IMG/VR virus record: IMGVR_UViG_3300044630_002434
Location: 32,001-96,000 of that record
Source: a virus
Strand: one strand, 5' to 3'
DNA: 64,000 nt
Part shown: one piece after another, positions 1 to 64,000 of the stretch
Position numbering within the stretch: position 1 is the stretch's first letter
How the letters are laid out: every line of letters starts with the position of its first letter
Notes under the pieces: generated by a model
What the model saw: the letters and a program-made list of their open reading frames with translations, nothing else
Told to the model about the DNA's origin: nothing
Database searches by the model: none
Translations under genes and position numbers: made by a program

Positions 1-25
1 CGGTACAGGGGCTAGACCTTTTAGA

Positions 26-184
26 CTATTCCGCCCAATGATGATTAAGTAGTTCCAACTCATCCGAGTTGTCAGACCACGCTTTCATCCTGATGATGTT
101 CACTATCTGGTCAAAGGTTAGTTCCTCGTCTGCCTTGTAAGTGATGTTCAAGGTTAAAGGAATCTTTGCTGTGTAGTTTTCCAT
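26..184 (-). CDS. small hypothetical early protein (MENYTAK..., 52 aa)
   Basis: Start reassigned to the ATG after SD GAGGG; promoter TTGACA-17-TAGAAT at 234-262. Confidence 0.7.
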   Translation of the reverse strand: MENYTAKIPLTLNITYKADEELTFDQIVNIIRMKAWSDNSDELELLNHHWAE

Positions 185-354
185 TGTCTGGGTTTCCCTC
201 TTTTCAGTTATACACCAACTTGGTGATAACACCATTCTATCATCTAACCTGACATTTGTCAAACACAAGTATTTACCGCGTGTCTGGTGTCAATTTGCTT
301 TTTGTCAGGTTAATGTGGTATGCTTATCTTGTAGGACAACGAAGGGTCACACAG

Positions 355-386
355 AAGAAAGCCTCCCGAAAGGGGGGCTTTCTTTA
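355..386. terminator. bidirectional intrinsic terminator
   Basis: AAGAAAGCCTCCC-GAAA-GGGGGGCTTTCTTT hairpin with A/T tails. Confidence 0.75.
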
Positions 387-569
387 TTTGTCTAGAATTC
401 TAAATACGGGTTCGCAAGGGTCGCCACCCTCTTCAGCGTATTCCTGTTCTTCAGGTGTTAGGTAGTCCCAGCCACTATCGTGTACCGCACAATACTGTTC
501 GCTAATCCACCCTTTTGTTATACCGAACAGCACCCATTCTGCGCGTTCATCCCATTCTTCGTCTTGCAT
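384..569 (-). CDS. hypothetical protein (61 aa)
   Basis: ORF with SD AAGGGG; acidic phage-like composition. Confidence 0.7.
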   Translation of the reverse strand: MQDEEWDERAEWVLFGITKGWISEQYCAVHDSGWDYLTPEEQEYAEEGGDPCEPVFRILDK

Positions 570-587
570 CTCGACCCCTTAAAAATT

Positions 588-1148
588 TCAGTTATCTTTA
601 TACTGTACCGTAATGTGAATAGTTCCGCCAGTACCTGAATCCAAGTAAGACGAGATAGTTATGGCTTCCTTTAGGTAAGCCTTTGCTTCTTCCACTGTGA
701 CCTTAGCCCCAACCATTGAATGCAATGCGCCAAGCGCGAATGATGAACCGCTACCAATACCGTAAATACCTGCAACATCTCTTGCCCAGCAGTAGTCGTT
801 AGCAATTTCATAGACAATCCCATTGACACAAACTATGATGTCAAACTCTTGGTTTCCGTCTTTTGCGTAGCCATTTGTTTCAAAGTAGCCTCTGATTACT
901 GGAATCAGTTTAGTAGAAACAAACTTATCGAGTTTAACTCCACTCAAGTTCTCCGCATCAGGCAAAGGAATGTCCGCAAGTAAGTTCACAGCCCTTAAAT
1001 CTCCCGCTGCGCCTACGAGATAGTTTCCGTTCTTAGATACTTTCTTTATCCCATTTGGTAAAAGATAGACTCTGTTGTCTGAGGAAATCTGAGAGTCGAA
1101 CCCAACAACCGTGAAACCCTCTCCCTGAATTGCTGCAATAGTTGTCAT
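588..1148 (-). CDS. Ntn-hydrolase, HslV/proteasome beta-subunit-like threonine protease
   Basis: N-terminal MTTIAAI (Thr nucleophile), DSQ, K, GAAG and GIGSGS motifs, C-terminal D..TGG. Confidence 0.8.
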   Translation of the reverse strand: MTTIAAIQGEGFTVVGFDSQISSDNRVYLLPNGIKKVSKNGNYLVGAAGDLRAVNLLADIPLPDAENLSGVKLDKFVSTKLIPVIRGYFETNGYAKDGNQEFDIIVCVNGIVYEIANDYCWARDVAGIYGIGSGSSFALGALHSMVGAKVTVEEAKAYLKEAITISSYLDSGTGGTIHITVQYKDN

Positions 1149-1165
1149 TGGAAAAAATTTCAGTC

Positions 1166-1432
1166 CTAAACTTCGTAGTCAATCGCGTCATCCCAAAGTA
1201 AATCTTTTAGTTCACTTTCGTATTTTGCTGAGTTCCAGCCATTAGTTTTTTCGGAGATGTCTTCCTCATCAACAATTGAATCTAAAGATAATACTGCCGT
1301 GTAGCCGTCATCCTCGAACATAACTATTAACTTGGTGTCATCTCTGTCCGCGTCATCAACAATAGCAACGACAAAGGACTCGCCCATACGATTAACGTGA
1401 TACGCGCTCTGGAGAATTTCTAATCTGCTCAT
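1166..1432 (-). CDS. hypothetical protein (88 aa), probably leaderless
   Basis: ORF; TAATGT -10-like box shortly upstream of the ATG. Confidence 0.7.
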   Translation of the reverse strand: MSRLEILQSAYHVNRMGESFVVAIVDDADRDDTKLIVMFEDDGYTAVLSLDSIVDEEDISEKTNGWNSAKYESELKDLLWDDAIDYEV

Positions 1433-1469
1433 AGCAAAAACATTACCGCATCCTAAGAGAGGCTATTTT

Positions 1470-1715
1470 TTACTTAGAAACCCTGCCTACATACACGGTA
1501 GTACGCCTATCGCTTAGGCTCACTACCTTGACAATCTTGCTAGTGTTGTCGAGATTAAGTTCTCTAATCAACGCACTAGCCCTTGGGTTATTGACCGTGC
1601 TAAGTTGCTTATGCGCGTAGGCAATCGCCAACCCCAAAGAGGTTTGAGTTCTACTCTCTAGGGGAGGCTTTATTTCCTTGCCCTTAGAGTTCATTAGTGT
1701 TACTGAATACTTCAT
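1470..1715 (-). CDS. hypothetical basic protein (81 aa), leaderless
   Basis: TTGACA-16-TAGACT promoter ending 6 nt before the ATG. Confidence 0.7.
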   Translation of the reverse strand: MKYSVTLMNSKGKEIKPPLESRTQTSLGLAIAYAHKQLSTVNNPRASALIRELNLDNTSKIVKVVSLSDRRTTVYVGRVSK

Positions 1716-1741
1716 ACCTCTAGTCTACCTAAAAATTTCAG

Positions 1742-1989
1742 TTTGTCAAGTTAGTCAAAATACTCTATGACAACCGCGCCCACGAAAGAAACCGCACCAA
1801 TTACTAGAGTTGCGATTAGGTAGGTAGGTGTTATAACTACTGGCTTTAGTAATCCAATAAACATAAGTTGTAGTTCCAGTAATGCCAATGGCAATGAGCC
1901 AATAGCAACATAAGTTAGTACGGCTTGTAAGTTAAATAAAAACATCTTGCTCTCCTTTTCTTTATCGCCCCTTGCGATAACTCTATTAT
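1742..1989. repeat. copy 1 of exact 248-bp duplication (copy 2 at 8198-8445)
   Basis: Identical by direct comparison, offset 6456. Confidence 0.95.
1751..1945 (-). CDS. small membrane protein (64 aa, 2 TM), copy 1
   Basis: MFLFNLQAVL... hydrophobic; SD AAGGAG; own promoter. Confidence 0.8.
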   Translation of the reverse strand: MFLFNLQAVLTYVAIGSLPLALLELQLMFIGLLKPVVITPTYLIATLVIGAVSFVGAVVIEYFD

Positions 1990-2019
1990 AACATAACTCT
2001 TTTGGCTTGTCAAGCATTA

Positions 2020-2133
2020 CTAAACATACGGCAACATTTGATGAAACCAAGACAAATCGTCTTTAGTAATCTTTCCTAGTTTAAGACCAAGGTAGTAAAG
2101 GTCGGCAACTTTTTTCTTGTAGTTTCTATCCAT
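2020..2133 (-). CDS. micro-protein (37 aa, MDRNYKKK...), leaderless
   Basis: Translated by hand; consensus promoter 2140-2168 directly upstream. Confidence 0.55.
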   Translation of the reverse strand: MDRNYKKKVADLYYLGLKLGKITKDDLSWFHQMLPYV

Positions 2134-2174
2134 AAAACTATTATAGAGTATTAACCTGACTTTGTCAAGTTAAA

Positions 2175-2300
2175 CGCCAGACGCGCCACCGAAAGGGGTT
2201 AAGGTGACGCGCCTAGCATTTGTGAGTGGGGAGAAAGGGGGGCAACCCCACTCGTATTCGGAGCATAGGGAGAAGGGAGTAAACCCTTGCTCTACGAACT
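2175..2300 (-). ncRNA. candidate three-hairpin small RNA with C-rich anti-SD loops
   Basis: Stems at 2257-2298, 2224-2253 and 2175-2218; loops UUUACUCCCUUCU, UUGCCCCCCUUUCU, UUAACCCCUUUC; G-U pairs work only on the minus strand; extended -10 TGcTAAAGT at about 2306-2314; no credible ORF. Confidence 0.7.
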
Positions 2301-2447
2301 CCTCTACTTTAGCATAAAAAAATTTCAGTTATGCTTCCGTGTCGGAATTTTTAACAATCTCCGCAGACTGACTTGCTCGAAACTTTCTTCGAGTCAAGCC
2401 CAAACCTTTTACCGCATCTCCAGCAGTTAGTAAAGATAGTCACTACT

Positions 2448-2666
2448 TCACTCCCCAATCTCTGGAATGTCGTAGTCATTAAGAGTCTGGCACTTCGGGC
2501 AAGTCCAAACACCGCGACCCCAATCGTCAAAAGATACTTCCTCTTGACCCTCGTACTGGCAAGCAACTTCATCTAAACCAAGTTCGATAGTGCCTAAACA
2601 AACTACTTCAATGTCTGCTGAATCCGCGTAGAATCCTGACCCTCTTAGTGAACCTTCGTAACTCAT
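2448..2666 (-). CDS. hypothetical Cys-containing protein (72 aa)
   Basis: SD GAAGGG, leader hairpin, promoter; CPKC motif. Confidence 0.75.
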   Translation of the reverse strand: MSYEGSLRGSGFYADSADIEVVCLGTIELGLDEVACQYEGQEEVSFDDWGRGVWTCPKCQTLNDYDIPEIGE

Positions 2667-2734
2667 TTTGTTTCCCTTCTTTATCGCCCCTTGCGATAAC
2701 TCTATTATAGCATACTTCTTTTTAAGTTGTCAAG

Positions 2735-2908
2735 TTATCTAACAACCGTGCCGTTCCAGTCTGACGGTAGTAGGTATTTAGCCTTCAATGAGTCGTGACA
2801 GGTATCTACAACTATCTGACAAACATCATCTATTATGTGTTCGCCTATCCCGTCAAGGTAGGCTCTTAAATTTTCCTGCAACTGTTCTTGCAAATCTTTA
2901 ATGCTCAT
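2735..2908 (-). CDS. hypothetical protein (57 aa, MSIKDLQ...)
   Basis: Translated by hand; SD GAAAGGAG; stop abuts the next -35 box. Confidence 0.7.
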   Translation of the reverse strand: MSIKDLQEQLQENLRAYLDGIGEHIIDDVCQIVVDTCHDSLKAKYLLPSDWNGTVVR

Positions 2909-2985
2909 TTATTTCTCCTTTCATAAAAATAAATAAAAGTTCCCCGACCCTAAATTTCCAAAATTATCTAGGGGCGGGGAATTCT

Positions 2986-3180
2986 TTAGTTGTCGTTAAT
3001 ACCTAGCAAAGCGAAAATTTCATCTTCGTTTAAGACAGTAACCTTTTCTCCACTATCATCAACAATCTTTACGCTAGTCACGCGGTAAGAGTTAGCAACC
3101 AAGTCACGAACTTCTTGCGCCGTGTTAGCGGTAAAACTGTATTCGTTATCTTTCGACTTCATTGTTACGTTGTAAGCCAT
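2986..3180 (-). CDS. hypothetical protein (64 aa, MAYNVTM...)
   Basis: SD AGAAGGGAG; hairpin downstream. Confidence 0.75.
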   Translation of the reverse strand: MAYNVTMKSKDNEYSFTANTAQEVRDLVANSYRVTSVKIVDDSGEKVTVLNEDEIFALLGINDN

Positions 3181-3237
3181 TTCGTTCTCCCTTCTTGGCT
3201 CTACCCTTTCCGCACTTTGCGGAAAAGTTTTCAGTTT

Positions 3238-3508
3238 ATGAAGTAGGTAGGTGGCTCTCTCAACCACCTGTATGCGCTTCCCCACGCTTCCTATTCGGCT
3301 ACCTACTTCAGTTTTGACTGGCGAACTACGCACCGCACTCCAGTTGTAGTTGTCTTATCTAGTGCAAGACCAGTCAAGTCTTAATAAAGTGAGCCTTGGT
3401 CTGCAATCATTGTTAGGTAGTTGTAGTCAGGCTATTTGCCTTTTCCGTTCACTAACGACCCGTTACCCGTTTATCCTCGGCACTCACTTCGTATCTCTAT
3501 TTAGTTAT
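3238..3508 (-). ncRNA. candidate multi-domain structured RNA (about 270 nt)
   Basis: Own promoter TTGCGA-17-TAGACT (3515-3543); long-range helices 3239-3250/3299-3310, 3314-3321/3370-3377, 3387-3393/3483-3489; no SD-led ORF. Confidence 0.6.
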
Positions 3509-3544
3509 AACCCTAGTCTATCATACTAGGTCTGCTTTCGCAAG

Positions 3545-3623
3545 TCCCAAGAGTAGGAATCGAACCTACCGTGCCAAAGCGAGTGATTTACAGTCACCTT
3601 CCCCACCTTGGGGAATCCTTGGG
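3545..3623 (-). tRNA. tRNA-Tyr(GTA), atypical
   Basis: Acceptor CCCAAGG/TCTTGGG+A, anticodon arm GGTGA-CTGTAAA-TCACT, T arm GTAGG-TTCGATT-CCTAC, long variable region, no encoded CCA; own promoter 3643-3671. Confidence 0.85.
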
Positions 3624-3657
3624 GTTATTTAATTATGAGTCTAGTTTATCATACTAG

Positions 3658-3825
3658 TTATCTCTTGTCAAGTTCCTCGATTAGTCTTGTTCGGCGTACA
3701 ACATCTTTGGTACTCCAACCTTGACCAATCTCGGCGCAAGACTGTAAGTAATAATCTAAGTCTTGAATTTCATCGTGAAGTTCATTGACCGTGAGTTCTT
3801 CTACTTGTTTGTTTCTTGTAAGCAT
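3658..3825 (-). CDS. hypothetical protein (55 aa, MLTRNKQ...)
   Basis: Translated by hand; SD GAAAGGGG; promoter upstream. Confidence 0.65.
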   Translation of the reverse strand: MLTRNKQVEELTVNELHDEIQDLDYYLQSCAEIGQGWSTKDVVRRTRLIEELDKR

Positions 3826-3976
3826 CTTTGCCCCTTTCGTTCCTCAAGTCTATAACATCTACCTGACAAATGCAAGTCACGGGGAAAGATAGTTTAACGA
3901 AGGCGGGACTCAGAATAAAAAATTTCAGTTATGCCCAAAAAAGAAACCCGCATTTCTGCGGGCTTCCATTTTTAGA

Positions 3977-4150
3977 TTAGTAGTTTTCGTTCACCCAATC
4001 CACAACGTCTTGCATTGTGTCCGCGCTACGCGCTACCGCTAGAAAGTTCTCATCTTCTAGCAATAGGTGTTCGGAAACCGTAGTTTCTCCCGCAACGAAA
4101 CCTAGTACCACTCTCAAATTTAGAGTTGTCATTAGTTGTCCTGTTGTCAT
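3977..4150 (-). CDS. hypothetical protein (57 aa)
   Basis: SD GAGAGGGG; promoter upstream and terminator downstream. Confidence 0.7.
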   Translation of the reverse strand: MTTGQLMTTLNLRVVLGFVAGETTVSEHLLLEDENFLAVARSADTMQDVVDWVNENY

Positions 4151-4214
4151 TTTTTCACCCCTCTCCGTGTGATAACACGAGTCTATCATACCTACCTGAC
4201 AATTGCAAGCAAAT

Positions 4215-4245
4215 AAGAAAACCCCCGTATTAACGGGGGCTTTCT
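4215..4245. terminator. intrinsic terminator
   Basis: CCCCCG-TATTAA-CGGGGG stem with U tail on the minus strand. Confidence 0.75.
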
Positions 4246-4254
4246 CCGTATCGC

Positions 4255-4419
4255 TTAGGCGTAGATAACCTTAAACACTAAGTCCATAGCGTGACGCTCG
4301 GCATCTGACCAAGCACTTTCACCTCTAAACTTTTTAACTGTCTTGCCATTGACGCGAACGATACCACTCATTGAATCTGACTCAACGGTGATGCCGTGTC
4401 CATAATCTGTAGTTTCCAT
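4255..4419 (-). CDS. hypothetical protein (54 aa, METTDYG...)
   Basis: Translated by hand; SD GAAAGGGG; flanked by promoter and terminator. Confidence 0.7.
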   Translation of the reverse strand: METTDYGHGITVESDSMSGIVRVNGKTVKKFRGESAWSDAERHAMDLVFKVIYA

Positions 4420-4475
4420 AACTACCCCTTTCGTTATCTCTATTGTAGCGTATTAACCTGACAAATGCAAGTCAT

Positions 4476-4506
4476 AAAGAAAACCCCCTCCGTAGAGGGG
4501 GCTTTC
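4476..4506 (-). terminator. intrinsic terminator with UACG tetraloop
   Basis: CCCCCTC-TACG-GAGGGGG then U tract; the same UACG loop occurs at about 4954-4971 and 9381-9400. Confidence 0.8.
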
Positions 4507-4519
4507 CAAGGGGTTCGCG

Positions 4520-4828
4520 CTATACGTTGAATAGGTTCTGCACGGCGGTTAATGCTTTTGTATCTTTGCCACCAACGTGCCAACGGTAGTAACCGTAGTT
4601 AATTCCATTTTCGTAGTTCTTCCAATCGTAGATACTCGCGACAAAAACCTCGCCAGTTTCTTCATCTTCAAACTTTAGTAACCATTCTGCCTGTACCTTA
4701 TCTTCGGGGTATCCCGTGTAGTGAGGTTCTCCCAACTTTTCTACAATAGTTGCGTAGGTTGTATTGACGTACCCAACTAATGAAGTTCCGCTTATGTCTA
4801 CAGAATTACTTTTCTCTATAAGTTTCAT
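4520..4828 (-). CDS. conserved phage hypothetical protein (102 aa)
   Basis: LGEP...KV.AEW...IYDWK...WHVGG pattern; SD AAAGGAG. Confidence 0.8.
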   Translation of the reverse strand: MKLIEKSNSVDISGTSLVGYVNTTYATIVEKLGEPHYTGYPEDKVQAEWLLKFEDEETGEVFVASIYDWKNYENGINYGYYRWHVGGKDTKALTAVQNLFNV

Positions 4829-4984
4829 TTTTTCTCCTTTTCGTGGCATCTCCACTACCTAAAGTAAACCATACAACCTGACCTTTGTCAAGTTGTGCAA
4901 ACTCCCGCGCGTCCCTAAAAAATTTCAGTTTTAAGTTCCCGCGCAAAAAATAATCCGCCCCGTAGGGCGGACCATTTTTGTAGG

Positions 4985-5458
4985 TTAGAATCTGCGAGCG
5001 CAGACTGGACCAATACCGCGAGCAACCGAAACCTCATCAGTTAGTTCACGACCGCAAGCGACACACACGCCAAACTGCAAACCGTAGTCGCAAGCCTGTT
5101 CAAGAGTCATCTTGTCATTAGCCGAGATAGCGCGAATGTAACTAGGGTCATACTGGAATGACCCCCCAACCAATTTGGTTGCGTATGGGCGACCTGACGA
5201 CTGCGAAATTTTAACGCGGTAGACAACGCCCTCCTTAAAGTAAACGCCGACCTCAAGCGCGACAACTGGCGCGGTAGTGCGTGACTCGCGCGGTGCGTAT
5301 GGAAACGACCGCAGGGTGTCAATGAGGGTACTGGCTTCGCGCTTGGATAGCACGGTGATGTCGCCAATGGTGGCGCGGAATGTGTCCGAAACTTCGCGTG
5401 ACGCGAGCAGGGACTGGGCATACGAGATTTGGCTCTCGGTGGCTTGTGTTGTGTTCAT
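4985..5458 (-). CDS. DUF6011-like zinc-finger protein, leaderless
   Basis: C-terminal CVACGRELTD..S..RGIGPVC motif. Confidence 0.75.
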   Translation of the reverse strand: MNTTQATESQISYAQSLLASREVSDTFRATIGDITVLSKREASTLIDTLRSFPYAPRESRTTAPVVALEVGVYFKEGVVYRVKISQSSGRPYATKLVGGSFQYDPSYIRAISANDKMTLEQACDYGLQFGVCVACGRELTDEVSVARGIGPVCARRF

Positions 5459-5640
5459 AGAACAACACTATCAAGTAACCTGACAAAAGTCAAGCGAAGA
5501 ACTCAGAACTATTTTTTCCGGGCTGAGCCTGGCAAAAAGCCTGGCGACAAAACTGAAATTTTTTACCCCGCGCAAAATTAAAAAATTAAAACCAAAAACC
5601 CCCAGCGATTTGCTAGGGGTCATTGGCTAGGGGTTATTCG

Positions 5641-5865
5641 TTAAGCACTTATCTTTTCGCCGAGATAGATTTCTAACTCCGTGCTGTTTTCTCTTGTCTT
5701 TCGGTCTAGAACTTCTTGAACTTCGTCAAGAGATTTTCCAAACTCATACGACACGGTAAGAATTGCAGACAATACGCCGTATTCGTTTGTGTCTAGGCTT
5801 GGGTACTTTGCTATGTGCAAAGCATTGTAAGACTTTAGAAAGTCTTGAGTATTTAGTGTTTTCAC
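5641..5865 (-). CDS. hypothetical protein (74 aa)
   Basis: GTG start after SD AAGGAG. Confidence 0.65.
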   Translation of the reverse strand: MKTLNTQDFLKSYNALHIAKYPSLDTNEYGVLSAILTVSYEFGKSLDEVQEVLDRKTRENSTELEIYLGEKISA

Positions 5866-5973
5866 TTCATTCTCCTTTTTAGTTGCCCTTTGCAACTTCA
5901 TAAAACAATCATAACACACTTGTCTGACAAATGCAAGTAAGGTGCGCCAGCCGTAGCCAGCGCACCCGTGAAC

Positions 5974-6318
5974 TTAAACGGCTAACCCAAATTCCTTTAG
6001 GAACTCTAATTGCTTTTGGGTGAGTCCAGTAGTTTCGCCCTCTCCGTCATTAGATGTAAGAAATACATCTCCAACGATTATGTCCGTACCAATTCCGTAC
6101 TTGTCCCAGAATAGGTTAGTGGCAATTCTGTTTGGCTCAAGTCCAATTAGTTTGCCTTCCTCGTTTAGCCATAGGTCAATGTCCTCGCCTACAACCGCGC
6201 ACTCAATCCAACCATTGACCGCGTTACGAATTACCTCGTAAGACTCGCCAACTGTGAACTCACGAGTTTCAACTGTGCCATCTACTCCAATGAATAGACC
6301 CTTTGCTTTGTCGCTCAT
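5974..6318 (-). CDS. DUF3846-like protein
   Basis: V.GWIE...NEEGKL..L..N..AT...IVGDV motif. Confidence 0.8.
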   Translation of the reverse strand: MSDKAKGLFIGVDGTVETREFTVGESYEVIRNAVNGWIECAVVGEDIDLWLNEEGKLIGLEPNRIATNLFWDKYGIGTDIIVGDVFLTSNDGEGETTGLTQKQLEFLKEFGLAV

Positions 6319-6445
6319 CTCTTCCCTTTCTTTGTGGTATTTCCACTAATAGAAATAATACCACATCTCCCTGACATTTGCAAGTTAATTTTTCCGTGTG
6401 GGTTTCCGACCTAAAAAATTTCAGTTATCTAACTCAGCGCAAAAA

Positions 6446-6577
6446 TTATTCTTCTATCGAATCAAAATAGTTGTTCACATCAACGATTGAGCAAGGTTCG
6501 CATTGCTCATAGTCACCATCAAGGCTGAACTTGTCTAGCGCATTACCGCACTCAATGCAAAGTTTTAATTCGTTCAT
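6446..6577 (-). CDS. Cys-rich micro-protein (43 aa)
   Basis: Translated by hand; TAATG coupling to the upstream ORF. Confidence 0.55.
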   Translation of the reverse strand: MNELKLCIECGNALDKFSLDGDYEQCEPCSIVDVNNYFDSIEE

Positions 6578-6765
6578 TACGCACCCCCTAATTCAGTTTC
6601 GAACTCGTATAAATCTTCGTCGTGTTCTGGACAGACCGCGTAGTAACCTTTGGTCACATCTTCGAAACTAACTTCAGTCTTGCAACGAGCGCAAACAACG
6701 CTTTCATCTTCGCCTAGTGCTTCTTCCGCACCGCGTAGTAACCATTCATCAAATCCTTGTAGCAC
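6577..6765 (-). CDS. hypothetical zinc-ribbon protein (62 aa)
   Basis: CARC...CPEH; SD GGGAGG. Confidence 0.7.
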   Translation of the reverse strand: MLQGFDEWLLRGAEEALGEDESVVCARCKTEVSFEDVTKGYYAVCPEHDEDLYEFETELGGA

Positions 6766-6872
6766 TTTGCTACCTCCCTTTCTTGTATTTCTATTGTAGC
6801 GCATTAGTCTGACATTTGCAAGTAACCGCGCAAAAAGAAAGAGCGAGCCTTTCGGCTCGCCCCTCCTAGAGT

Positions 6873-7283
6873 TTAGTAACTCGCGTGAGTTCGATTAGAA
6901 CCTAAGTCACTAGCAAGTTCGTAAATGTGGTCAATGTTAATTGTCCGACTCTCGCCCTTGTTGTTGTACGCAGTAGCATCACCCGTAAAGTAGCGATACT
7001 TCTCGTAACCATTAGTAATGATTACCGCGACCCAATCATCTTGCAAGTGACGCTTAAATACATCAGCCCAGTCAATCTCGTCAAACTCTTCTGTTTCGTC
7101 ATTGTAGATTGACCAAATTTCTCCAGAACCATCATCATCATTGTCAAGAAATCCGTAAAGTGTTACGCCATCTTTCTCTTGAGTAATTACCTTTACAGGG
7201 TAGTTCTCAAGTTCTGCTGTAAACGCTTCCGCATCTTTTACCGCAAAGTAGTTGCTTCGCGTCTGTCCGTAGTAATTAGCCAT
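6873..7283 (-). CDS. conserved phage hypothetical protein (136 aa)
   Basis: MANYY...RSNYF.VKD and G.EK.RY pattern; promoter, leader hairpin, terminator. Confidence 0.8.
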   Translation of the reverse strand: MANYYGQTRSNYFAVKDAEAFTAELENYPVKVITQEKDGVTLYGFLDNDDDGSGEIWSIYNDETEEFDEIDWADVFKRHLQDDWVAVIITNGYEKYRYFTGDATAYNNKGESRTINIDHIYELASDLGSNRTHASY

Positions 7284-7353
7284 TTGGCTGTCCCTTCCGC
7301 AAGTAAGCCCTTCTCACTCGCTGTATCTATTATTTCTTATTACCTAACATTTG

Positions 7354-7656
7354 TCAAGTTGATTTAATAATTACGAGTCCCGTGTCCTGCGTTTCAAGTC
7401 CATAGCCCTCAGACAGTTCTTCTTCTAGCCATTGAGTTGAGTAATCAAAAACATAAAACAAATCTCTTTGCATTTCTTCGTCTGACTCTCCCGCAAAAAA
7501 ATTCAGTTTATCTTCTTCCCAGATTTCGGTGTTGATGTCATACCCATACTTCATAGCAAGTTCGACTACCGCAATCTGAAACCTGATGTGCGGGTCAGGT
7601 AGTTCACTCTCGTACCTAACCCACACGCCTAAGTCTTTCTCTGTGACCTTAATCAA
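7354..7656 (-). CDS. hypothetical protein (100 aa)
   Basis: ORF whose TGA stop lies inside the next TTGACA box. Confidence 0.7.
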   Translation of the reverse strand: MIKVTEKDLGVWVRYESELPDPHIRFQIAVVELAMKYGYDINTEIWEEDKLNFFAGESDEEMQRDLFYVFDYSTQWLEEELSEGYGLETQDTGLVIIKST

Positions 7657-7909
7657 CTCTTACTTCTTTCTCTCCTTGTAGTAATCCGCAAGACGAGCAA
7701 GGATAGTCGTCAATGTTGATGTCGTACACAAATCGGTGTTCGCAGTCTACACGCCAAATACCGTAGCACTCACAAACAAAACAACGGTGCTTGTCCTCGC
7801 CAAGTTCGATTACTTCATCTCGCTGGATAATCCAATTACAATCATCACACCGAAAAGATTTCACTTTTTCGTTCGAGTTGTTGCTGACAAAAATCCACTC
7901 TTCTGCCAT
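7649..7909 (-). CDS. Cys-rich hypothetical protein (86 aa)
   Basis: Three CxxC pairs; translational coupling. Confidence 0.7.
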   Translation of the reverse strand: MAEEWIFVSNNSNEKVKSFRCDDCNWIIQRDEVIELGEDKHRCFVCECYGIWRVDCEHRFVYDINIDDYPCSSCGLLQGEKEVRVD

Positions 7910-8136
7910 TAGAACACTCTCCCGTACTCGTTCATAACTACTCCCCCGCCACCGCTAGGTGATGTAACTTCCCATTGTTCGTATGGTGTTGGGTCGTAAT
8001 TATCTCGGCACTCTTTACACCACAGAATGTCCATTCTGTCGTACTTCTCAAACATTTCCACTTTTGGGAAATCTTGTTCGCAGTCCACGCAGAAATCGTT
8101 TTCTGCTGGTATCTCAATTCCAAGCCATTGTGTCAT
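7909..8136 (-). CDS. hypothetical zinc-finger protein (75 aa)
   Basis: CVDC...CKEC; SD AAGGGAG. Confidence 0.7.
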   Translation of the reverse strand: MTQWLGIEIPAENDFCVDCEQDFPKVEMFEKYDRMDILWCKECRDNYDPTPYEQWEVTSPSGGGGVVMNEYGRVF

Positions 8137-8197
8137 TTTGTTCTCCCTTTTCTTTATCGCCCTTTGCGATAGTTCTATCTTACGGACTTTTCTAACT

Positions 8198-8445
8198 TTT
8201 GTCAAGTTAGTCAAAATACTCTATGACAACCGCGCCCACGAAAGAAACCGCACCAATTACTAGAGTTGCGATTAGGTAGGTAGGTGTTATAACTACTGGC
8301 TTTAGTAATCCAATAAACATAAGTTGTAGTTCCAGTAATGCCAATGGCAATGAGCCAATAGCAACATAAGTTAGTACGGCTTGTAAGTTAAATAAAAACA
8401 TCTTGCTCTCCTTTTCTTTATCGCCCCTTGCGATAACTCTATTAT
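8198..8445. repeat. copy 2 of exact 248-bp duplication
   Basis: Identical to 1742-1989. Confidence 0.95.
8207..8401 (-). CDS. small membrane protein (64 aa), copy 2
   Basis: Identical to 1751-1945. Confidence 0.8.
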   Translation of the reverse strand: MFLFNLQAVLTYVAIGSLPLALLELQLMFIGLLKPVVITPTYLIATLVIGAVSFVGAVVIEYFD

Positions 8446-8471
8446 TCCATAAGGATTGACATTTGTCAAGC

Positions 8472-8624
8472 CTAGTTCGCTTCCGCGATAGCGTGTCGGC
8501 GTTGGGCAGACCTATCGCGGTTACGGCGTGTACGCCTATCCGCAAACTTTGCAGACTTCTGGTTTAGGACATAGTGTCCCGAACCTGTCACTAGATTGTC
8601 TAGTGGACTCTTGCGCTTAGCCAT
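8472..8624 (-). CDS. Arg-rich micro-protein (50 aa, MAKRKSP...)
   Basis: Translated by hand; SD GAAAGGAG; promoter upstream. Confidence 0.65.
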   Translation of the reverse strand: MAKRKSPLDNLVTGSGHYVLNQKSAKFADRRTRRNRDRSAQRRHAIAEAN

Positions 8625-8771
8625 CTCTGACTCCTTTCAATAAATCTATTGTAGCACACTTCCCTGACATTTGTAAAATTACCCGCGCAAACTTTTAGTA
8701 AAAAATTTCAGTTATGAATTTTAAGAAAAAAGAAAACCTCGCCCTTTCGGGTGAGGCTCTCTTTCTACCTA

Positions 8772-8975
8772 CTAGACGGAAACTAACCGCCATTGTAGTT
8801 CCTCGAAACTATGGTGAGTGCGTAAGTCTTTGCACTCGGCTAGACAGTCTACGCAGACCTCAACTTCCGTTGAGTAGACAACTTTGCCTGAACCAACCAC
8901 ATCATACTGTGCCTTTACTATTTCAAAAGTGTTTGCTGACTCTACTCCGCAAGTGGCACATTCTAAGTTACTCAT
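8772..8975 (-). CDS. hypothetical zinc-finger protein (67 aa)
   Basis: CATC...CVDC; promoter, leader hairpin, terminator. Confidence 0.7.
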   Translation of the reverse strand: MSNLECATCGVESANTFEIVKAQYDVVGSGKVVYSTEVEVCVDCLAECKDLRTHHSFEELQWRLVSV

Positions 8976-9157
8976 TTTGTTCTCCCTCTATCAGTCACTC
9001 CCTGCAACTTGATAAATCAAGTTTAACATACTTACCTGACATTTGTCAAGTCACCGCGTGTTCGGCGTGTCGCAATTTTGTAGCACCCCTTTCCCTAAAA
9101 AATTTCAGTTATGAAAATAAGAAAACCCCACCTTTCGGTGGGGCTTTCCTTTGGTGG

Positions 9158-9310
9158 CTACTTACTTGGGTGACGGTGCATAGCCGAGTGAAGGTTGAGA
9201 TAACCCAACACATCATTACGAGTTAGGACTTCGCGACCCTGCGAGCAGGTTGGGCAGATAACTAACTTGCCTAGTCCTAGTGAAACTAGTGTGCGCTTTA
9301 GTGTATTCAC
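9158..9310 (-). CDS. micro-protein with CxxC...H motif (50 aa)
   Basis: Translated by hand; GTG after SD GAAAGGAG. Confidence 0.6.
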   Translation of the reverse strand: MNTLKRTLVSLGLGKLVICPTCSQGREVLTRNDVLGYLNLHSAMHRHPSK

Positions 9311-9412
9311 GCTTTTCTCCTTTCCTTATGTAATAATTGTATCATACCTTTATGACATTTTCTGTATTTCGAGAAAATAAACCCCGCCCGTAGGCGGGGC
9401 TTATTTTAGTGG

Positions 9413-9604
9413 CTAACTAACTTGCACCACTTTTAGTTCCCGCGCGTAGCGAACCAATACTTTGTAGCCTAAACGCTTTGCGTCAGATTTATTTAGGTAT
9501 TGACCCGTGTAAGACTGAAAATCCAAATCGGCGTTCCAATCTGCTTTCACTTCGGCTTGAGATTTGTATTCTCTGCCGTATGCTGGCTTTGCTTCAATAA
9601 ACAT
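9413..9604 (-). CDS. conserved phage hypothetical protein (63 aa)
   Basis: PAYGR.YKS..EV..DW....DF pattern; SD GGGAGG. Confidence 0.75.
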   Translation of the reverse strand: MFIEAKPAYGREYKSQAEVKADWNADLDFQSYTGQYLNKSDAKRLGYKVLVRYARELKVVQVS

Positions 9605-9758
9605 TTGTGTCCTCCCTTCCGTTAAAACTATTCTAGCGTACTTACCTGACATTATCAAGTTAAACGCCAATTTATTTTTTTCCTCGTGTTCATAACTGAA
9701 ATTTTTTAGCGAGGCGACAAAAAAATCCGCGCAATCTTCCGCGCGGGCTTCTTTGTGT

Positions 9759-10034
9759 TTAGTATTTGTAGGTGATGTTTAGGTATTGGTACTTGTAAGG
9801 AATTGTGACTTCCCTGCGTACTGGCTCTTCATCATCTTCGTCAAAACTTTCGTCAGTTTCGTAGCGCACTAGGATTTCGCTATCCTCTAAAGTCACTTCG
9901 ATTAACTCGGTAGCGCGGTAATCATCTACATAGTTTTTCCATTGACTAGTAATGTCCGCGATAGCGGTGTCTAGTGTGTCGTACAACACTTCGCCGTCTA
10001 GTTCGATAATGTCTACTGTTCTAACATCTGACAT
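9759..10034 (-). CDS. acidic hypothetical protein (91 aa)
   Basis: SD GAAAGGG; flanking promoter and terminator. Confidence 0.7.
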   Translation of the reverse strand: MSDVRTVDIIELDGEVLYDTLDTAIADITSQWKNYVDDYRATELIEVTLEDSEILVRYETDESFDEDDEEPVRREVTIPYKYQYLNITYKY

Positions 10035-10157
10035 TTTGTTCCCTTTCTTTTGCAACTCCCTGTTGCTAGTACCTAGCGTACACTACTTCCCTGACATTTG
10101 CAAGTTGAAAGGGGGGCGAGTTTCCCCGCCCCCTTTTCGTGCGCCCCTTAGCGCGGA

Positions 10158-10631
10158 TTACCACGAACTATCGTAGGCAAAACTCCAGCCCTCTGGGACT
10201 TTAGATAGTATGCGCCCTAGTTGGACTAGGGTGTCCTCAATCTGTTCCCAATACCACTCGTCAATTTCAATCGAGCCGTAGAAGAAACCTACTTGAGTTG
10301 GTAGCAATTCTTCCGCCACTTCTTTGCTCTTGCTTGTCCAAACTTTCATACAGACATCATTAAGTTCCTGCAACTCTTCGCGAGTGACATAATGCTCTTT
10401 GCAATTATCCTCGCCGTCTTGCACATTGTCCACGAACCATTGGTGTATCTGGTTAGCCTTGCGCCAGTAGCCAACTTTTACATTGACTGAAATTGACGGC
10501 ATCTCCTCGTTCTCAAAATCGCCCGTGCCAAGCACTTCCGCAACTTTTGCGTATGCTTCTTGCTTTGCTTGCTCTTGCCACAAACCACCTGATAGGTAGT
10601 TAGTCGCATAAAGGTACTGGTCTAGTCCCAT
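10158..10631 (-). CDS. conserved phage protein (MGLDQYL...YWRKANQIHQWF family)
   Basis: Characteristic N-terminal and YWRKAN motifs; ends in SSW. Confidence 0.85.
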   Translation of the reverse strand: MGLDQYLYATNYLSGGLWQEQAKQEAYAKVAEVLGTGDFENEEMPSISVNVKVGYWRKANQIHQWFVDNVQDGEDNCKEHYVTREELQELNDVCMKVWTSKSKEVAEELLPTQVGFFYGSIEIDEWYWEQIEDTLVQLGRILSKVPEGWSFAYDSSW

Positions 10632-10632
10632 T

Positions 10633-10803
10633 TTAGTTTTCTCCTTCTTGTTCTTCGATTACTTCTACATAAACTTCGTCTTTTTTGTAGGTTTCAATTT
10701 CAGAGAAGAAACGATTTTTAACTTCAATTTCTATCTCTTGGTCGGTAAGGTTTTCACCTTTTATTTCAATGGTGATACTAGCCGTACAGATGTAGGTAGT
10801 CAT
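10633..10803 (-). CDS. acidic hypothetical protein (56 aa)
   Basis: Translated by hand; SD GAAGGG. Confidence 0.65.
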   Translation of the reverse strand: MTTYICTASITIEIKGENLTDQEIEIEVKNRFFSEIETYKKDEVYVEVIEEQEGEN

Positions 10804-11031
10804 TGTATTTCCCTTCTGTAAGCAAGTCCCTCTTGCCTACTCTGTAAGTGTATCATACTACTCTGACATTTTCAACTTGAACGCGAAACTATTTTTTCCG
10901 CGCCCGCCCCCGTAAAAAATTTCAGTTTTGAAAAATAGAGAAAGCGCGAATCTCTCCGCGCTCTCTCATTTGTTATTCGACTTCATTATCCGTAAGGATT
11001 TGCTCTACTAAATACTCAACCGTGTATTCTA

Positions 11032-11328
11032 TTATCGTACCTCGTACTCTCTGCTGACACCGTGGTATTCATAAAGGTTTAAGCCGTTGCTATCGCACTC
11101 TAGGCAATACAGTTCGGTATCGGTGACATCAGTAATGTCAAAATCTTCTGACAGGATTATGTCGCCGTTCTCATCTACTGTTGTCTTGTATTTATTCGCG
11201 ACAGACATGTAGTAATTTAAGTTGTGTTCTGGGTAATAACCCTGCTCGCCTTCACAAGTTTTGCAGAACGGTGTGCAGTCGAAACCGCCCCCGTGTTCTG
11301 GACACTCAATCATTTCTTGTTCGCTCAT
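11032..11328 (-). CDS. Cys-rich hypothetical protein (98 aa)
   Basis: CPEH..FDCTPFC..C; SD GAAGGG. Confidence 0.7.
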   Translation of the reverse strand: MSEQEMIECPEHGGGFDCTPFCKTCEGEQGYYPEHNLNYYMSVANKYKTTVDENGDIILSEDFDITDVTDTELYCLECDSNGLNLYEYHGVSREYEVR

Positions 11329-11422
11329 TTTGTTTCCCTTCTTAGAGTGAGTCCCTCTCGCTCTATGATAAGTATACGCCCCTAGCCTGACATTTGTCAA
11401 ATCAGGGGCGCATACCGCGTGT

Positions 11423-11653
11423 TTAATCTTGATGTGTCGTGTCTAGTAGCCGTGCAAGGCTGTCCTCAACTTCGTAGAGTCGGCTATGCATTTGGGGGTC
11501 GTCGCCTTCGCGTGGCTTGTACCACTCGTCGCCTGTCCAAACCTGACCGTCATAAAACTTTGCGTCAGTCGTTTCGGCATCTACAAAAAACTTCTTTGCT
11601 TCTGGGTCATACCTAACAACAAAGTGCATCTCAAAATCTAATTCGCTCATCAC
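11423..11653 (-). CDS. hypothetical protein
   Basis: Coupled ORF. Confidence 0.65.
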   Translation of the reverse strand: MMSELDFEMHFVVRYDPEAKKFFVDAETTDAKFYDGQVWTGDEWYKPREGDDPQMHSRLYEVEDSLARLLDTTHQD

Positions 11654-11871
11654 AAATCCTCGCCGTTTTCGTCTTGGAAGATTAGGTCGCCTAAATTATT
11701 TTCGTGACCAAATCCGCAACCAAAATCCTCGTTTACCCAGCCCTCTATGTATTCCATAATGTCTGGCAGACTTACGTTAGTTCTACCTTGCTCTTGTAGT
11801 TCAGCAGTAATCCGCTCAACGTCATAGGTGACAACTTTCATCACATTTATGCGCTTTGGTAGTTCGCTCAT
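11650..11871 (-). CDS. hypothetical protein (73 aa)
   Basis: Coupled ORF (TGATG). Confidence 0.7.
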   Translation of the reverse strand: MSELPKRINVMKVVTYDVERITAELQEQGRTNVSLPDIMEYIEGWVNEDFGCGFGHENNLGDLIFQDENGEDL

Positions 11872-12059
11872 CACGCCACTTCCTCTTCTACTTGCCACGC
11901 ATCGGCAACCTGTGTTCCGTTGCTTTCGGTAATGTAATCTGACTCTGGGCTATTCATTACAATTTCCCAGCCTATCTTTCGCGCCTCTTGCTCGCTACTG
12001 GCTTCCACCTGTAATGAGTGAGTCAGGCGTTCGTCTATGCGTACTTCGTACTTAGCCAT
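11871..12059 (-). CDS. hypothetical protein (62 aa)
   Basis: Y.V.I.E.L...V.VEASSE.EA pattern; SD GAAGGG. Confidence 0.7.
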   Translation of the reverse strand: MAKYEVRIDERLTHSLQVEASSEQEARKIGWEIVMNSPESDYITESNGTQVADAWQVEEEVA

Positions 12060-12239
12060 TTTTTTCCCTTCTCGGTAAGTCCCTCTCACCAATAACTCTA
12101 TAATACACTACTAGCCTGACATACGCAAGTCGAACACGAAATTATCTTTTCCCGCGCCTTCGCTGAGTCCGCCAGAAAAAATTTCAGTTATCGCTAAACC
12201 AAGAAACCCCTAGCCTTTCGGCTAGAGGCATCTTTTGGA

Positions 12240-12416
12240 TTAAGCGGTGATGAGTCCCTCATCTATCAAGGTGCTGGCAATCCTGCCGTAAGAACCTTGC
12301 AGTTGCCACGCTAGTCGCGTATCAACTAGTTTCTGAAACAAGTCAATCGTTTCTTCTCTGTCGAGAGTTCCTTCCTCAAACGCGATAATGAGGTTTGTTA
12401 TGTTGTCTAGTGACAT
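12240..12416 (-). CDS. conserved phage hypothetical protein (58 aa)
   Basis: FQ.LVDT.LAW.LQGSYGR motif. Confidence 0.75.
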   Translation of the reverse strand: MSLDNITNLIIAFEEGTLDREETIDLFQKLVDTRLAWQLQGSYGRIASTLIDEGLITA

Positions 12417-12509
12417 TTGCTTCCCTTTCGTATTCGCCGTACTTCGGCTTATGTAATAAGGATACACTAAACCCCTGACATTTGTCAAGGGCTTAGTGTC
12501 CCTGCGTGT

Positions 12510-12791
12510 TTAGGCTACTTCTTCTTCTTCGGCATCAGGGCAAGTAACGCGCCCCCAATAAACGATTGTGTCGTACCCCATTGAGTCGGTACTGCTGTTG
12601 CTGATTAGTTCATCGCGCAGTTCCTCATCTTCTACTAGGCGTGAGATTGCTACGCCAAGTTCTAACAGATTGTGCGCCACAATACCTACGCAACTATCGC
12701 CGAACATTCCGCGCCCTGAATAATCGGCGCGTACACTTCCTTCAACTTCTTGAGCAATTTCTTCAAGTAGTTCGAGTGAGATTGTAAACAT
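12510..12791 (-). CDS. conserved phage hypothetical protein (93 aa)
   Basis: YSGRGMFG..C.GIV and DSMG...IVYW motifs. Confidence 0.8.
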   Translation of the reverse strand: MFTISLELLEEIAQEVEGSVRADYSGRGMFGDSCVGIVAHNLLELGVAISRLVEDEELRDELISNSSTDSMGYDTIVYWGRVTCPDAEEEEVA

Positions 12792-12951
12792 CTTGCTCTC
12801 CTTCTATCAGTAAGTCCTTCTTGCTGATAAAACTATTATAACATACTTCCCTGACATTTGCAAATTAAGATTTTTAGCGCGTGTCGCCCTAAAAAATTTC
12901 AGTTTTGCCAAACAAAAAAATCCGCGCACTTGGCGCGGACTTTTTGTGAGG

Positions 12952-13263
12952 TTAGCGTTTCGAGCATTCCTCGTCGTGTTCAATTTCGCCCTCGTACTTG
13001 TCTGTTATTGAGTAACACTCTTGACAAGTTTCTATTGGCATCAACTTGTATTTGTAAACCGCGCTGGCTTCGTTATCGTCCAGTAGCGACTCCGCGATTT
13101 CGTCTGTCCAGTTCCACCACTTGCTAATAATGCTTTCGGCATCTGCGTATTCGTTGTGCTGTAAGTCGAAAGCAAACTTGCCAACTACTGTCGCAAACCT
13201 AATTGAATCCATTTCGGCTATTGCGTGGTACATACGCCTTGCGTTAATTGTTTCTCGACTCAT
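12952..13263 (-). CDS. hypothetical protein (103 aa)
   Basis: SD GAAAGGGG; promoter and terminator. Confidence 0.7.
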   Translation of the reverse strand: MSRETINARRMYHAIAEMDSIRFATVVGKFAFDLQHNEYADAESIISKWWNWTDEIAESLLDDNEASAVYKYKLMPIETCQECYSITDKYEGEIEHDEECSKR

Positions 13264-13355
13264 TTGAGTCCCCTTTCGTTTTGTCGTATTTCGACTATGA
13301 GATAAGGTTACACCCAACCCCTGACATTTGTCAAGGGCTGGGCTAACCTGCGTGT

Positions 13356-13670
13356 TTAGAGATTATTTAGTTCTATGTATTCGTAGGCTTTCTCGAAAGA
13401 CTTGACGACACTTTCTCTAGTTGCATCTAAGTCCTCAACAATAAAGTCCAGATACTTTTCATTAGCGTGGTCAATCAGGTAAGCAACATACTTTCCTGTA
13501 TCTGGGTTTTGGTTGAAACAAAACTCAAGCCCATCTTTTGGAAACGCGCTGGCTATGTAGCCAACCCCTGCGTCAAAGGTGTAAGCCATAAAACGAGGGT
13601 CAGTAATGCTTGCTAATAGTTCGCGCTGGTCTTTTGCATCTTGCGTTATGTAATCTGCGTGAGTATTCAC
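13356..13670 (-). CDS. hypothetical protein (104 aa)
   Basis: SD AAAGG; own promoter. Confidence 0.7.
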   Translation of the reverse strand: MNTHADYITQDAKDQRELLASITDPRFMAYTFDAGVGYIASAFPKDGLEFCFNQNPDTGKYVAYLIDHANEKYLDFIVEDLDATRESVVKSFEKAYEYIELNNL

Positions 13671-13906
13671 TTTGAGTGTTTATCCTTTTCTGTTAGTGAC
13701 TTTCACCAACAAGTACCACTTTAGCAGATTACCCTGACATTTCCAAATCGAGATTTTTGATGCGTGTTGCGGTAAAAAATTTCAGTTTTGCGCAAACGAA
13801 AACCCGCACCGAAAAAATTTCAGTACGGGCTTCGCTTAGAAACTGTCGGAAGGCTGACACACGCTGGAAGGACGATACCCCCCGACAGGGCTTATGGGTT
13901 ATTCAA

Positions 13907-21287: not shown

Positions 21288-21405
21288 GTCTCGCCGTTCA
21301 ATAAAAAATTTCAGTTATCGTTCCACATTGTGAGACGACTTGCTCGCCGTTAAAAAATTTCAGTTTTCGCGTGCGGGGCAAGCCGCCTTCACCTGGAAGT
21401 TGTAA

Positions 21406-63999: not shown

Positions 64000-64000
64000 A

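Follow-up and report, generated by a model that had tools for sequence, protein, structure and literature searches.

The DNA analysed here, referred to as the window, is a 64,000-nt stretch corresponding to bases 32001-96000 of the 119,711-bp IMG/VR virus record IMGVR_UViG_3300044630_002434, the completeness of which is estimated at 89%. The first part of the window (225-12867, minus strand) is a hyperplastic early region in which small ORFans, ~20 copies of a promoter family and terminators are assembled, and which differs from the equivalent region of the closest relative by 14 indels or replacements. A small expression cassette, consisting of a -10 box tail, a hairpin leader with a ribosome-binding site (RBS), an open reading frame (ORF) of 64 aa and the -35 box of the next promoter, occurs twice in this region, at 1742-1989 (copy 1, at site 1) and at 8198-8445 (copy 2, at site 2), in both cases on the minus strand. 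The record also encodes ribonucleotide reductase, primase, helicase, a PolA-type polymerase, the large terminase subunit and a WhiB-like regulator. The polymerase shares 75.7% identity with that of the metagenome-assembled Actinomycetia phage DSL-LC01, followed by those of Microbacterium (~57% identity) and Arthrobacter phages. The virus thus appears to be a lake actinophage-like phage, not a T4-type phage. A search of the genome for Gp23 (PF07068) gave no match, although the control likewise matched nowhere, and megablast of positions 1-12000 against the INPHARED phages returned no match.

Direct sequence comparison revealed that the two copies are identical over exactly 248 nt and are flanked by a mismatch on each side; in a repeat search, they form a direct repeat pair of 274 nt (1742-2015 and 8198-8471) with 96% identity. 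A 248-bp exact repeat cannot be a product of chance. Only these two full copies, both within the window, are present in the whole record, and self-blast identified the pair as the sole near-identical long repeat of the genome. Read on the minus strand, identity opens at ATAAT, the upstream -10 box minus its first base (TATAAT at site 1, AATAAT at site 2), and continues through the leader AGAGTTATCGCAAGGGGCGATAAAGAAAAGGAGAGCAAG, a 64-codon ORF and its stop codon. The right end of the repeat is CTTGACAAA, which directly abuts the stop codon and is the -35 box of the next gene's promoter. The upstream -35 box, CTTGACAA, is common to both sites, yet the 17-nt spacers between -35 and -10 differ, as do the spacers beyond the downstream -35 box. 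The homology available at the edges is 5 nt on the -10 side and 9 nt on the -35 side. A preliminary description of the window had equated the two intervals, traced the identity from inside a -10 box to the next -35 box on the transcribed strand, noted that the outer spacers differ and taken the unit to be bounded by promoter boxes, and the comparison agrees on each point. The same description had placed the crossovers within the promoter spacers. This does not hold, since the spacers diverge right up to the hexamers, and only the -10 and -35 boxes are shared.

All four predicted promoters that flank the copies are complete in a consensus scan. Copy 1 lies between an upstream promoter of the TTGACA-17-TATAAT type with a TG extension (1985-2013, minus strand) and a downstream promoter, TTGACA-16-TAGACT (1722-1749, minus strand), which would drive an 81-aa gene. 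Copy 2 is preceded by TTGACA-17-AATAAT (8441-8469, minus strand), in which the -35 box and the spacer are resident and the -10 tail comes from the repeat, and is followed by TTGACA-17-TAAGAT (8177-8205, minus strand), which would drive a 75-aa gene. In the two downstream promoters, the -35 box is the last part of the repeat. The claim that insertion leaves both neighbours with working hybrid promoters is borne out in that the hybrid promoters at both junctions are complete and have spacers of 16-17 nt, their activity being predicted from sequence.

The 64-aa ORFs (1751-1945 and 8207-8401, both on the minus strand) were taken from the ORF list, the second also being supported by exact identity. 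Two hydrophobic segments, recognised by inspection, suggest that the product is a putative membrane protein. Homologues with 48-89% aa identity are encoded at 8 viral loci and 12 metagenome loci. The protein matches no family in Pfam or PHROG, and comparison with a protein atlas gave scores of at most 0.84, inside the range reached by shuffled proteins, and no functional lead. The 42-nt leader is composed of a 7-bp hairpin (-7.5 kcal/mol, z -4.2), which begins 4 nt past the -10 box, and of the RBS. It belongs to a promoter-leader repeat family, found by repeat clustering (family D4) and pattern search, in which a -10 box is followed by the AGAGTTATCGCAAGGGGCGATAAAGAA hairpin leader. The member in copy 1 spans 1958-2003 (minus strand), and the others are at 2677-2722, 8150-8195 and 8414-8459, which makes four in the window; two occurrences are found in the closest relative. 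This family offers ~45 nt of homology. The exact 19-nt leader core matched only the already known relative in a viral contig collection. The duplicated unit has no terminator of its own. Rfam searches of positions 1-14000 at E ≤ 0.1 gave nothing at the leader or the cassette; the four matches obtained, all under the gathering score, are a tRNA (scored as tRNA-Sec) and three elsewhere.

The surrounding early region is rich in promoter-like sites, 39 being observed vs 19.3 ± 3.8 in shuffled sequences, and the minus strand carries 17 of the 18 best. The nhmmer profile derived from the repeat family describes an extended promoter, aACTTGCAAATGTCAGGnAAGT..TAtAAT, with 28 matches at E ≤ 1 genome-wide, ~20 of which are strong, lie on the minus strand and fall between 225 and 12867. 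Exact tracts common to pairs of 23 promoters have a median length of 8 nt and a maximum of 20 nt. By manual count, terminator-like stem-loops occur within ~75 nt upstream of ~9 of ~22 promoters. Downstream, several promoters lead into a hairpin leader belonging to one of two or more shared families. None of the seven small-ORF proteins of the array that were scanned matched a PHROG, and none of five of these gave an above-threshold Pfam match. On the orthologous ORFan array of DSL-LC01, the promoter-family hidden Markov model gave one weak match (E 0.83) and was otherwise silent, and the family is therefore lineage-specific. About 20 of the promoters feature a conserved spacer and an inverted repeat, TGACA-AA-TGTCA, overlapping the -35 box (CTTGACAAATGTCAGG; e.g., 8663-8677 and 9035-9049). 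This conservation exceeds what sigma-70 needs and could denote an operator for a phage regulator.

The direction and the age of the duplication were assessed by comparison with two relatives. IMGVR_UViG_3300011113_000257 (loci L005 and L013) is syntenic with the window and 80-90% identical at the nucleotide level, and the metagenome contig L094 covers the site-1 region. Both carry the 64-aa gene at site 1, where the 81-aa and HslV-like genes follow immediately downstream. At site 2, L013, the one relative covering it, features a different cassette, in which a 55-aa ORF is accompanied by a leader, a terminator and a promoter of its own, and the 110,857-bp record to which it belongs contains a single copy of the 64-aa gene (83% nt identity). 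Because the 64-aa gene is at site 1 in both relatives and another cassette occupies site 2, copy 1 is ancestral and copy 2 derived. Translational coupling links the 64-aa gene of both relatives to a zinc-ribbon ORF, and it is the latter that bears the hairpin leader. The window lacks this ORF and has the leader joined to the ATG of the 64-aa gene; the junction of this loss corresponds to a 7-nt direct repeat, AGATGTT, in the relative. Both copies carry the fusion, so copy 2 arose within the lineage of this phage, later than the zinc-ribbon deletion. Since there are 0 differences in 248 nt between the copies vs ~17% divergence from the relative, copy 2 is either very recent or recently homogenised. 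The spacer of the promoter at 8177-8205 resembles that of the L013 promoter at the equivalent site. A search of the viral contig collection with the 75-aa neighbour of copy 2 matched only the relative already known.

To map other rearrangements, positions 11100-300 of the window (minus strand) and 500-10900 of L013 were aligned by affine-gap global alignment with cheap extension, and small blocks were merged; this procedure was used instead of MAFFT global alignments, which misaligned regions with large indels. Breakpoints were classed by eye against the predicted promoters. Fourteen indel or replacement events were identified in ~10.7 kb. Together with the duplication, these give 30 breakpoints, 11 of which lie in promoters (two being ambiguous or at the edge), 10 in a leader, RBS or start codon, 4 in terminators and 4 inside ORFs, while one is unclassed. 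In 3 of the 14 events (4, 11 and 13), as in the duplication, both breakpoints are inside promoters and in register. Event 4 involves 385 nt bounded by AATGTCAGG, and in event 11 the two phages carry different cassettes between two TTGCAaaTGTCAGGT repeats. Event 13 is a unit with a 37-aa ORF (2001-2155, minus strand), present in the window and absent from L013, both breaks of which are 7 nt past the -35 hexamer. The ATG of this ORF (2020-2133) is found 6 nt past a perfect TATAAT and has no RBS, as would be the case if the mRNA were leaderless or if the ORF were not a gene.

The remaining events are diverse. A single breakpoint falls in a promoter in events 2, 5 and 7, and one falls in the leader just past the -10 box in events 3 and 10. 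Events 2, 3 and 10 extend from the -10 box or early leader to just before a terminator, events 7 and 9 from the 3' end of an ORF to a -35 box or a terminator, and event 5, at the copy-2 site, is compound. Events 1, 6 and 14 run from RBS to RBS, from TAATG to TAATG and from ATG to ATG, respectively, at direct repeats of 5-10 nt. In event 8, two zinc-ribbon ORFs are fused at CxxC codons: adjacent ORFs of 75 and 43 aa in the window (6446-6804) correspond to one fused ORF in L013 (4566-4760), and the junction is at CxxC-coding repeats. Event 12 concerns non-coding sequence, and its class is unclear. Direct repeats at the junctions are AATGTCAGG (event 4), TTGCAaaTGTCAGGT (event 11), AGATGTT (event 14, the zinc-ribbon loss), TAATG (event 6) and AGAAGG (event 1). 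Promoters are therefore frequent but not exclusive breakpoints, and the position of the break within the promoter varies. Of the 14 events, only 4, 11 and 13 break in promoters at both ends, whereas the others also break at RBS or ATG sequences, terminators, leaders and ORFs.

The repeat is probably a second copy of a small ORFan expression cassette, generated by homology-driven shuffling at repeated regulatory sequences. The copy 1 cassette would have been copied, over a distance of 6.4 kb, into a second slot between promoters, one that holds a different cassette in the relative. The left exchange would have taken place at the -10 box, possibly together with overwriting of a resident leader of the same family, and the right exchange at the -35 box CTTGACAAA. 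As the donor and recipient slots have no sequence in common outside these exchange points, the event may be viewed as short-homology recombination, a gene-conversion patch or a template switch between dispersed early promoter/leader repeats. With the partners paired at their promoters, each junction would keep a full promoter. If it acted at RBS and start codons and at terminators as well as at promoters, this process could have produced the dense cassette gain, loss and replacement seen against the closest relative. The site-2 promoter of the relative looks like the upstream -35 part of the window joined to its downstream spacer part, a make-up that could result from insertion into a single promoter. 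A double exchange that replaced a resident cassette fits equally, as does a conversion tract formed later. A circle or tandem junction, if formed, would join the cassette end (...CTTGACAAA and spacer) to ATAATAGAG...

The exchange was probably executed by the general recombination and replication machinery of the phage. From the gene content, we infer that the obvious candidates are three genes on the minus strand, recognised here by PHROG or Pfam matches. The preliminary description had named a Sak4/Cas4-like module and a serine recombinase as candidates, and such genes do exist. The three genes encode a Sak4-like single-strand annealing protein (54567-55346; phrog_124, 8.8e-32; AAA_24), an adjoining PD-(D/E)XK exonuclease (55350-56276; phrog_1218; PF12705) and an SSB-like protein (54033-54563). 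The best match of the latter is phrog_2300 (2.2e-26), which has no assigned function, and the matches to the SSB families phrog_378 (8.2e-11) and phrog_6015 (9.9e-10) are weaker.

Several points weigh against homology-driven shuffling. The edge homology of 5 and 9 nt is very short, unless the replaced resident cassette had the same leader. The spacers adjoining copy 2 match neither the site-1 spacers nor other loci, as a fuzzy search for the four flanking spacers, with up to 4 substitutions, recovered nothing but these spacers from the genome and the collected loci. To some extent, breaks in promoters are to be expected, given that only intergenic breaks survive selection and that intergenic space is mostly promoter, leader and terminator; with 15 events, no enrichment beyond that expectation is shown. 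The close relatives found are two in number. Finally, in the lake metagenome run X1, described below, the repeat unitig has 1.46 times the depth of its flanks, not 2 times.

An alternative is an older promoter-to-promoter duplication of 274 nt, from -35 to -35, the core of which gene conversion homogenised recently, so that the 248-bp edges would mark a conversion tract. Imperfect similarity does extend beyond the upstream end of the 248 nt, with TTATG in the spacer and CTTGACAA as the -35 box, which accounts for the 274 nt at 96%, and the spacers adjoining copy 2 match no current donor. This upstream similarity, however, is no more than the promoter-family consensus. Moreover, both copies share the zinc-ribbon loss and the relative has no site-2 copy; hence, such a duplication would still be younger than the split. 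We regard this scenario as unlikely, and it would in any case be one more form of homology-driven exchange, not another type of system.

An assembly artefact or a strain chimera was also considered, in which one strain has the cassette at site 1, another has it at site 2 and the assembler merged the two paths, so that two copies would coexist in no genome. In keeping with this, the record was assembled from a metagenome, and the k-mers typically used in assembly are shorter than the 248 bp of the exact repeat. Positions 5000-12000 are present in 24 lake-water metagenome runs, 15 of which contain at least half of the sampled words. Contigs from four of the runs (X1, X3, X4 and X5) were aligned to 7300-9300. 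With k=31, the repeat is unbridgeable, and the Logan contigs all break at it. In X1, which may be the source sample, the 246-nt repeat unitig has a depth of 20.4, vs 13.7 and 14.3 for the site-2 flanks, and in X5 the depth is 20.5 vs 14.3, ratios below 2 that a chimera would fit. The X1 flanks, however, are long unbranched contigs (5548 and 2745 nt) that reach 30 nt into the repeat at full depth, with no alternative junction listed; therefore, site 2 is occupied in essentially all genomes there. A 32-nt piece common to three leader copies has a depth of 40.5 in X1 (~3x flank), and a 31-mer has a depth of 25.5 (~2x flank), which would place the leader of site 1 near full depth as well, the assignment of the 31-mer to the other two leader contexts being deduced. 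Repeat depth exceeds flank depth in X3 also (50 vs 15-31), and across runs the ratio is 1.4-2.3. The site-1 flank ends loosely at 8198 in X3, X4 and X5, which come from different studies. From the excess depth and these loose ends, it follows that both contexts coexist in independent samples and that the repeat is present in more than one copy per genome on average. Site 1 is, in addition, kept in both relatives. A chimera is thus very unlikely. Among the listed loose ends of the contigs on 7300-9300, no joints, empty site or circle junction were found, although contigs miss rare forms, and X3 has no cover at 8506-8572. One X5 contig tracks the window to 8179, in the leader of the 75-aa gene, and then passes into another promoter (minus strand AACTTGACAAAGGTCAGAGGGGTGTGTTAT), similar to the site-1 promoter of the relative; this hints at promoter swapping among co-occurring strains.

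Site-specific movement was considered in two forms. In one, the early-array promoters double as phased recombination sites, the TGACA-AA-TGTCA repeats being bound by the serine recombinase or an unknown factor, and cassettes are excised as promoter-bearing mini-circles and re-inserted. We consider this highly improbable; if true, the phased promoter sites would represent a promoter-based cassette platform outside the T4 group and the 248-bp duplicate a freshly completed transposition. The other form, which is about as improbable, is a dedicated integron-like system in which the serine recombinase recognises the promoter, for instance TGACA-AA-TGTCA at the -35 box, and moves circles made of the -10 box, leader, ORF and -35 box. 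A small serine recombinase of 220 aa is indeed encoded at 39796-40458 (plus strand; PF00239, 115-116 bits; phrog_95 and phrog_125), and many promoters carry the inverted repeat around the -35 box. A crossover there could account for the right edge of the repeat (CTTGACAAA) as well as for events 4 and 11, and in-register exchange would leave the promoters intact.

The crossover, however, is at no fixed position. The left edge of the repeat lies in a -10 box, the breaks of event 13 are 7 nt past the -35 box, beyond the centre of the palindrome, and other events map to RBS or ATG sequences, terminators and the inside of ORFs. The promoter upstream of copy 1 (CTTGACAAGCCAAAAG) has no palindrome, and the recombinase gene, which nothing ties to the cassette, is ~30 kb from the array. 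The cassette has its own promoter and no attC-like hairpin at its 3' end. The preliminary remark that the window contains no tyrosine integrase can be extended to the whole 119,711-bp record, in which PF00589 has no match (the control was positive in 14 of 14 genomes). The loose ends listed for the contigs, in which rare forms would be missed, included no circle junction. Such heterogeneous breakpoints argue for homology or microhomology recombination and selection for viable products, not for a dedicated site-specific system, and the idea of an integron-like system using promoters as attachment sites is not borne out. The preliminary proposal is thus partly supported: promoter-bounded, promoter-preserving cassette shuffling holds, whereas a dedicated recombinase with promoters as exclusive attachment sites does not. 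An RNA-mediated (retro) copy is ruled out, as the repeat starts inside the -10 box, upstream of any transcript start. The serine recombinase features a full Resolvase domain, and its match to the 'Recombinase' domain covers just the beginning of that domain and, at 19.5 bits, stays below the cut-off. Its gene adjoins that of a 680-aa protein with a weak lectin-domain match.

The closest parallel is provided by the PeSLs (promoter-early stem-loops), mobile regulatory cassettes of the T4-type phages phi1 and RB49, which Arbiol et al. (2010; PMC2839356) describe as repeated strong sigma-70-like early promoters with stem-loops located in various positions, including just downstream of the -10 box. 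As reported in that text, PeSLs are concentrated in hyperplastic regions ahead of ORFans, most indels between phi1 and RB49 are PeSL-associated, and crossovers map between the -10 box and the Shine-Dalgarno sequence or ATG. Inverse polymerase chain reaction detected mini-circles with one chimeric PeSL, re-insertion at another repeat was proposed, and the authors liken the arrangement to integrons, no dedicated integrase having been found (PMC2839356). Mini-circles with a chimeric promoter and the comparison with integrons are thus already in that text, and integron-like shuffling, as put forward in the preliminary description, is not a new idea. The work was extended to other T4-like phages (Comeau et al. 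2014; PMC4122927). In the literature found, PeSL work concerns only T4-like or related large myoviruses, the search having covered the phenomenon under this name and not under others.

Measured against the PeSL literature, the phage described here shows the same concentration of a promoter motif in a small-ORFan region, stem-loops that appear tied to promoters (the leader hairpin 4 nt past the -10 box and some upstream terminators), and indels or replacements against a close relative that are bounded by promoter motifs. In contrast to the PeSL hosts, it is not a T4-type phage, as seen from its PolA, nearest to that of DSL-LC01, its Sak4-like module and its WhiB-like gene. The promoter family is unrelated in sequence to the T4 PeSLs and features a conserved spacer and a -35 palindrome, and the stem-loop of the duplicated unit is a 5' leader hairpin, not a terminator. 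An intragenomic duplicate at 100% identity also sets the present case apart, the word 'duplication' being absent from the text of PMC2839356. Conversely, the mini-circles of the PeSL phages were demonstrated by inverse PCR, whereas here they are hypothetical. The resemblance is therefore one of architecture, and the two systems are better regarded as analogues than as homologues. By this analogy, the case most likely represents PeSL-type modular shuffling in an unrelated phage lineage, not a new class of mobile element.

Likeness to integron cassettes is limited to small single-gene units that are gained, lost and replaced at defined boundaries, possibly through a circular intermediate. Unlike integrons, the record has no IntI-type tyrosine integrase, each cassette has its own promoter in place of a common Pc, and the breakpoints are heterogeneous. 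There is no attC-like element or inverted repeat at the cassette end, where the stop codon abuts the next -35 box. As for resolvase/invertase-type serine-recombinase systems, the gene is present here but the fixed-position crossover is not, breaks being found in -10 and -35 boxes, 7 nt past the -35 box, at RBS or ATG sequences, in terminators and in ORFs.

Phage single-strand annealing proteins of the Rad52-like and Sak4 types carry out relaxed, short-homology recombination and contribute to mosaicism in temperate phages. The literature on such mosaicism concerns exchanges between phages and prophages, not promoter-phased cassettes. The present phage resembles these cases in that it encodes the Sak4-like protein, the exonuclease and the SSB-like protein, and in that its junctions feature direct repeats of 5-15 nt.

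Promoter-repeat cassette shuffling, so far found in T4-type phages in the literature retrieved, would thus extend to an uncultured freshwater actinophage-like lineage. The duplicate would provide a clean, dated example of a step that the PeSL model only postulated, namely the copying of a cassette into a second promoter-flanked slot with the promoters of the neighbours left intact. As 15 of the 24 listed metagenome runs hold at least half of the sampled words, the rate and the junction spectrum of the process could be measured in natural populations.

Additional repeated elements are found in the early region. With no more than 1 mismatch allowed, 19 copies of a 15-nt motif, AACTGAAATTTTTTA, are found between 579 and 21365 (0.04 expected), 17 on the minus strand and two on the plus strand (e.g., 3916-3930, 8699-8713, 9096-9110 and 21351-21365). 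The motif usually either separates a terminator from the promoter that follows or immediately precedes an RBS, at a variable distance of ~21-46 nt from the -35 box, and it could represent a binding site or another class of promoter. A degenerate copy is present in the spacer of the promoter downstream of copy 1. A second leader family, consisting of a GCAAGAGGGACTTGC hairpin followed by a AGAAGGGAAA RBS on the minus strand, serves several other early genes (7281-7317, 8971-9003, 10800-10836 and 11325-11361). In L013, a 105-nt promoter-plus-leader unit of this second family is duplicated (698-802 and 1726-1830, 87% identity). A tRNA-Tyr (GTA) gene at 3544-3623 is located within the early array, between 59-nt promoter-like repeats (3498-3556 and 3626-3684) that are 73% identical. 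Outside the array, long internal and dispersed repeats with ~70% identity were detected by self-blast in genes beside tail-fibre-like ORFs; they extend past the window end (63831-64000 onward; genome positions 95831-97032 vs 116421-117610).

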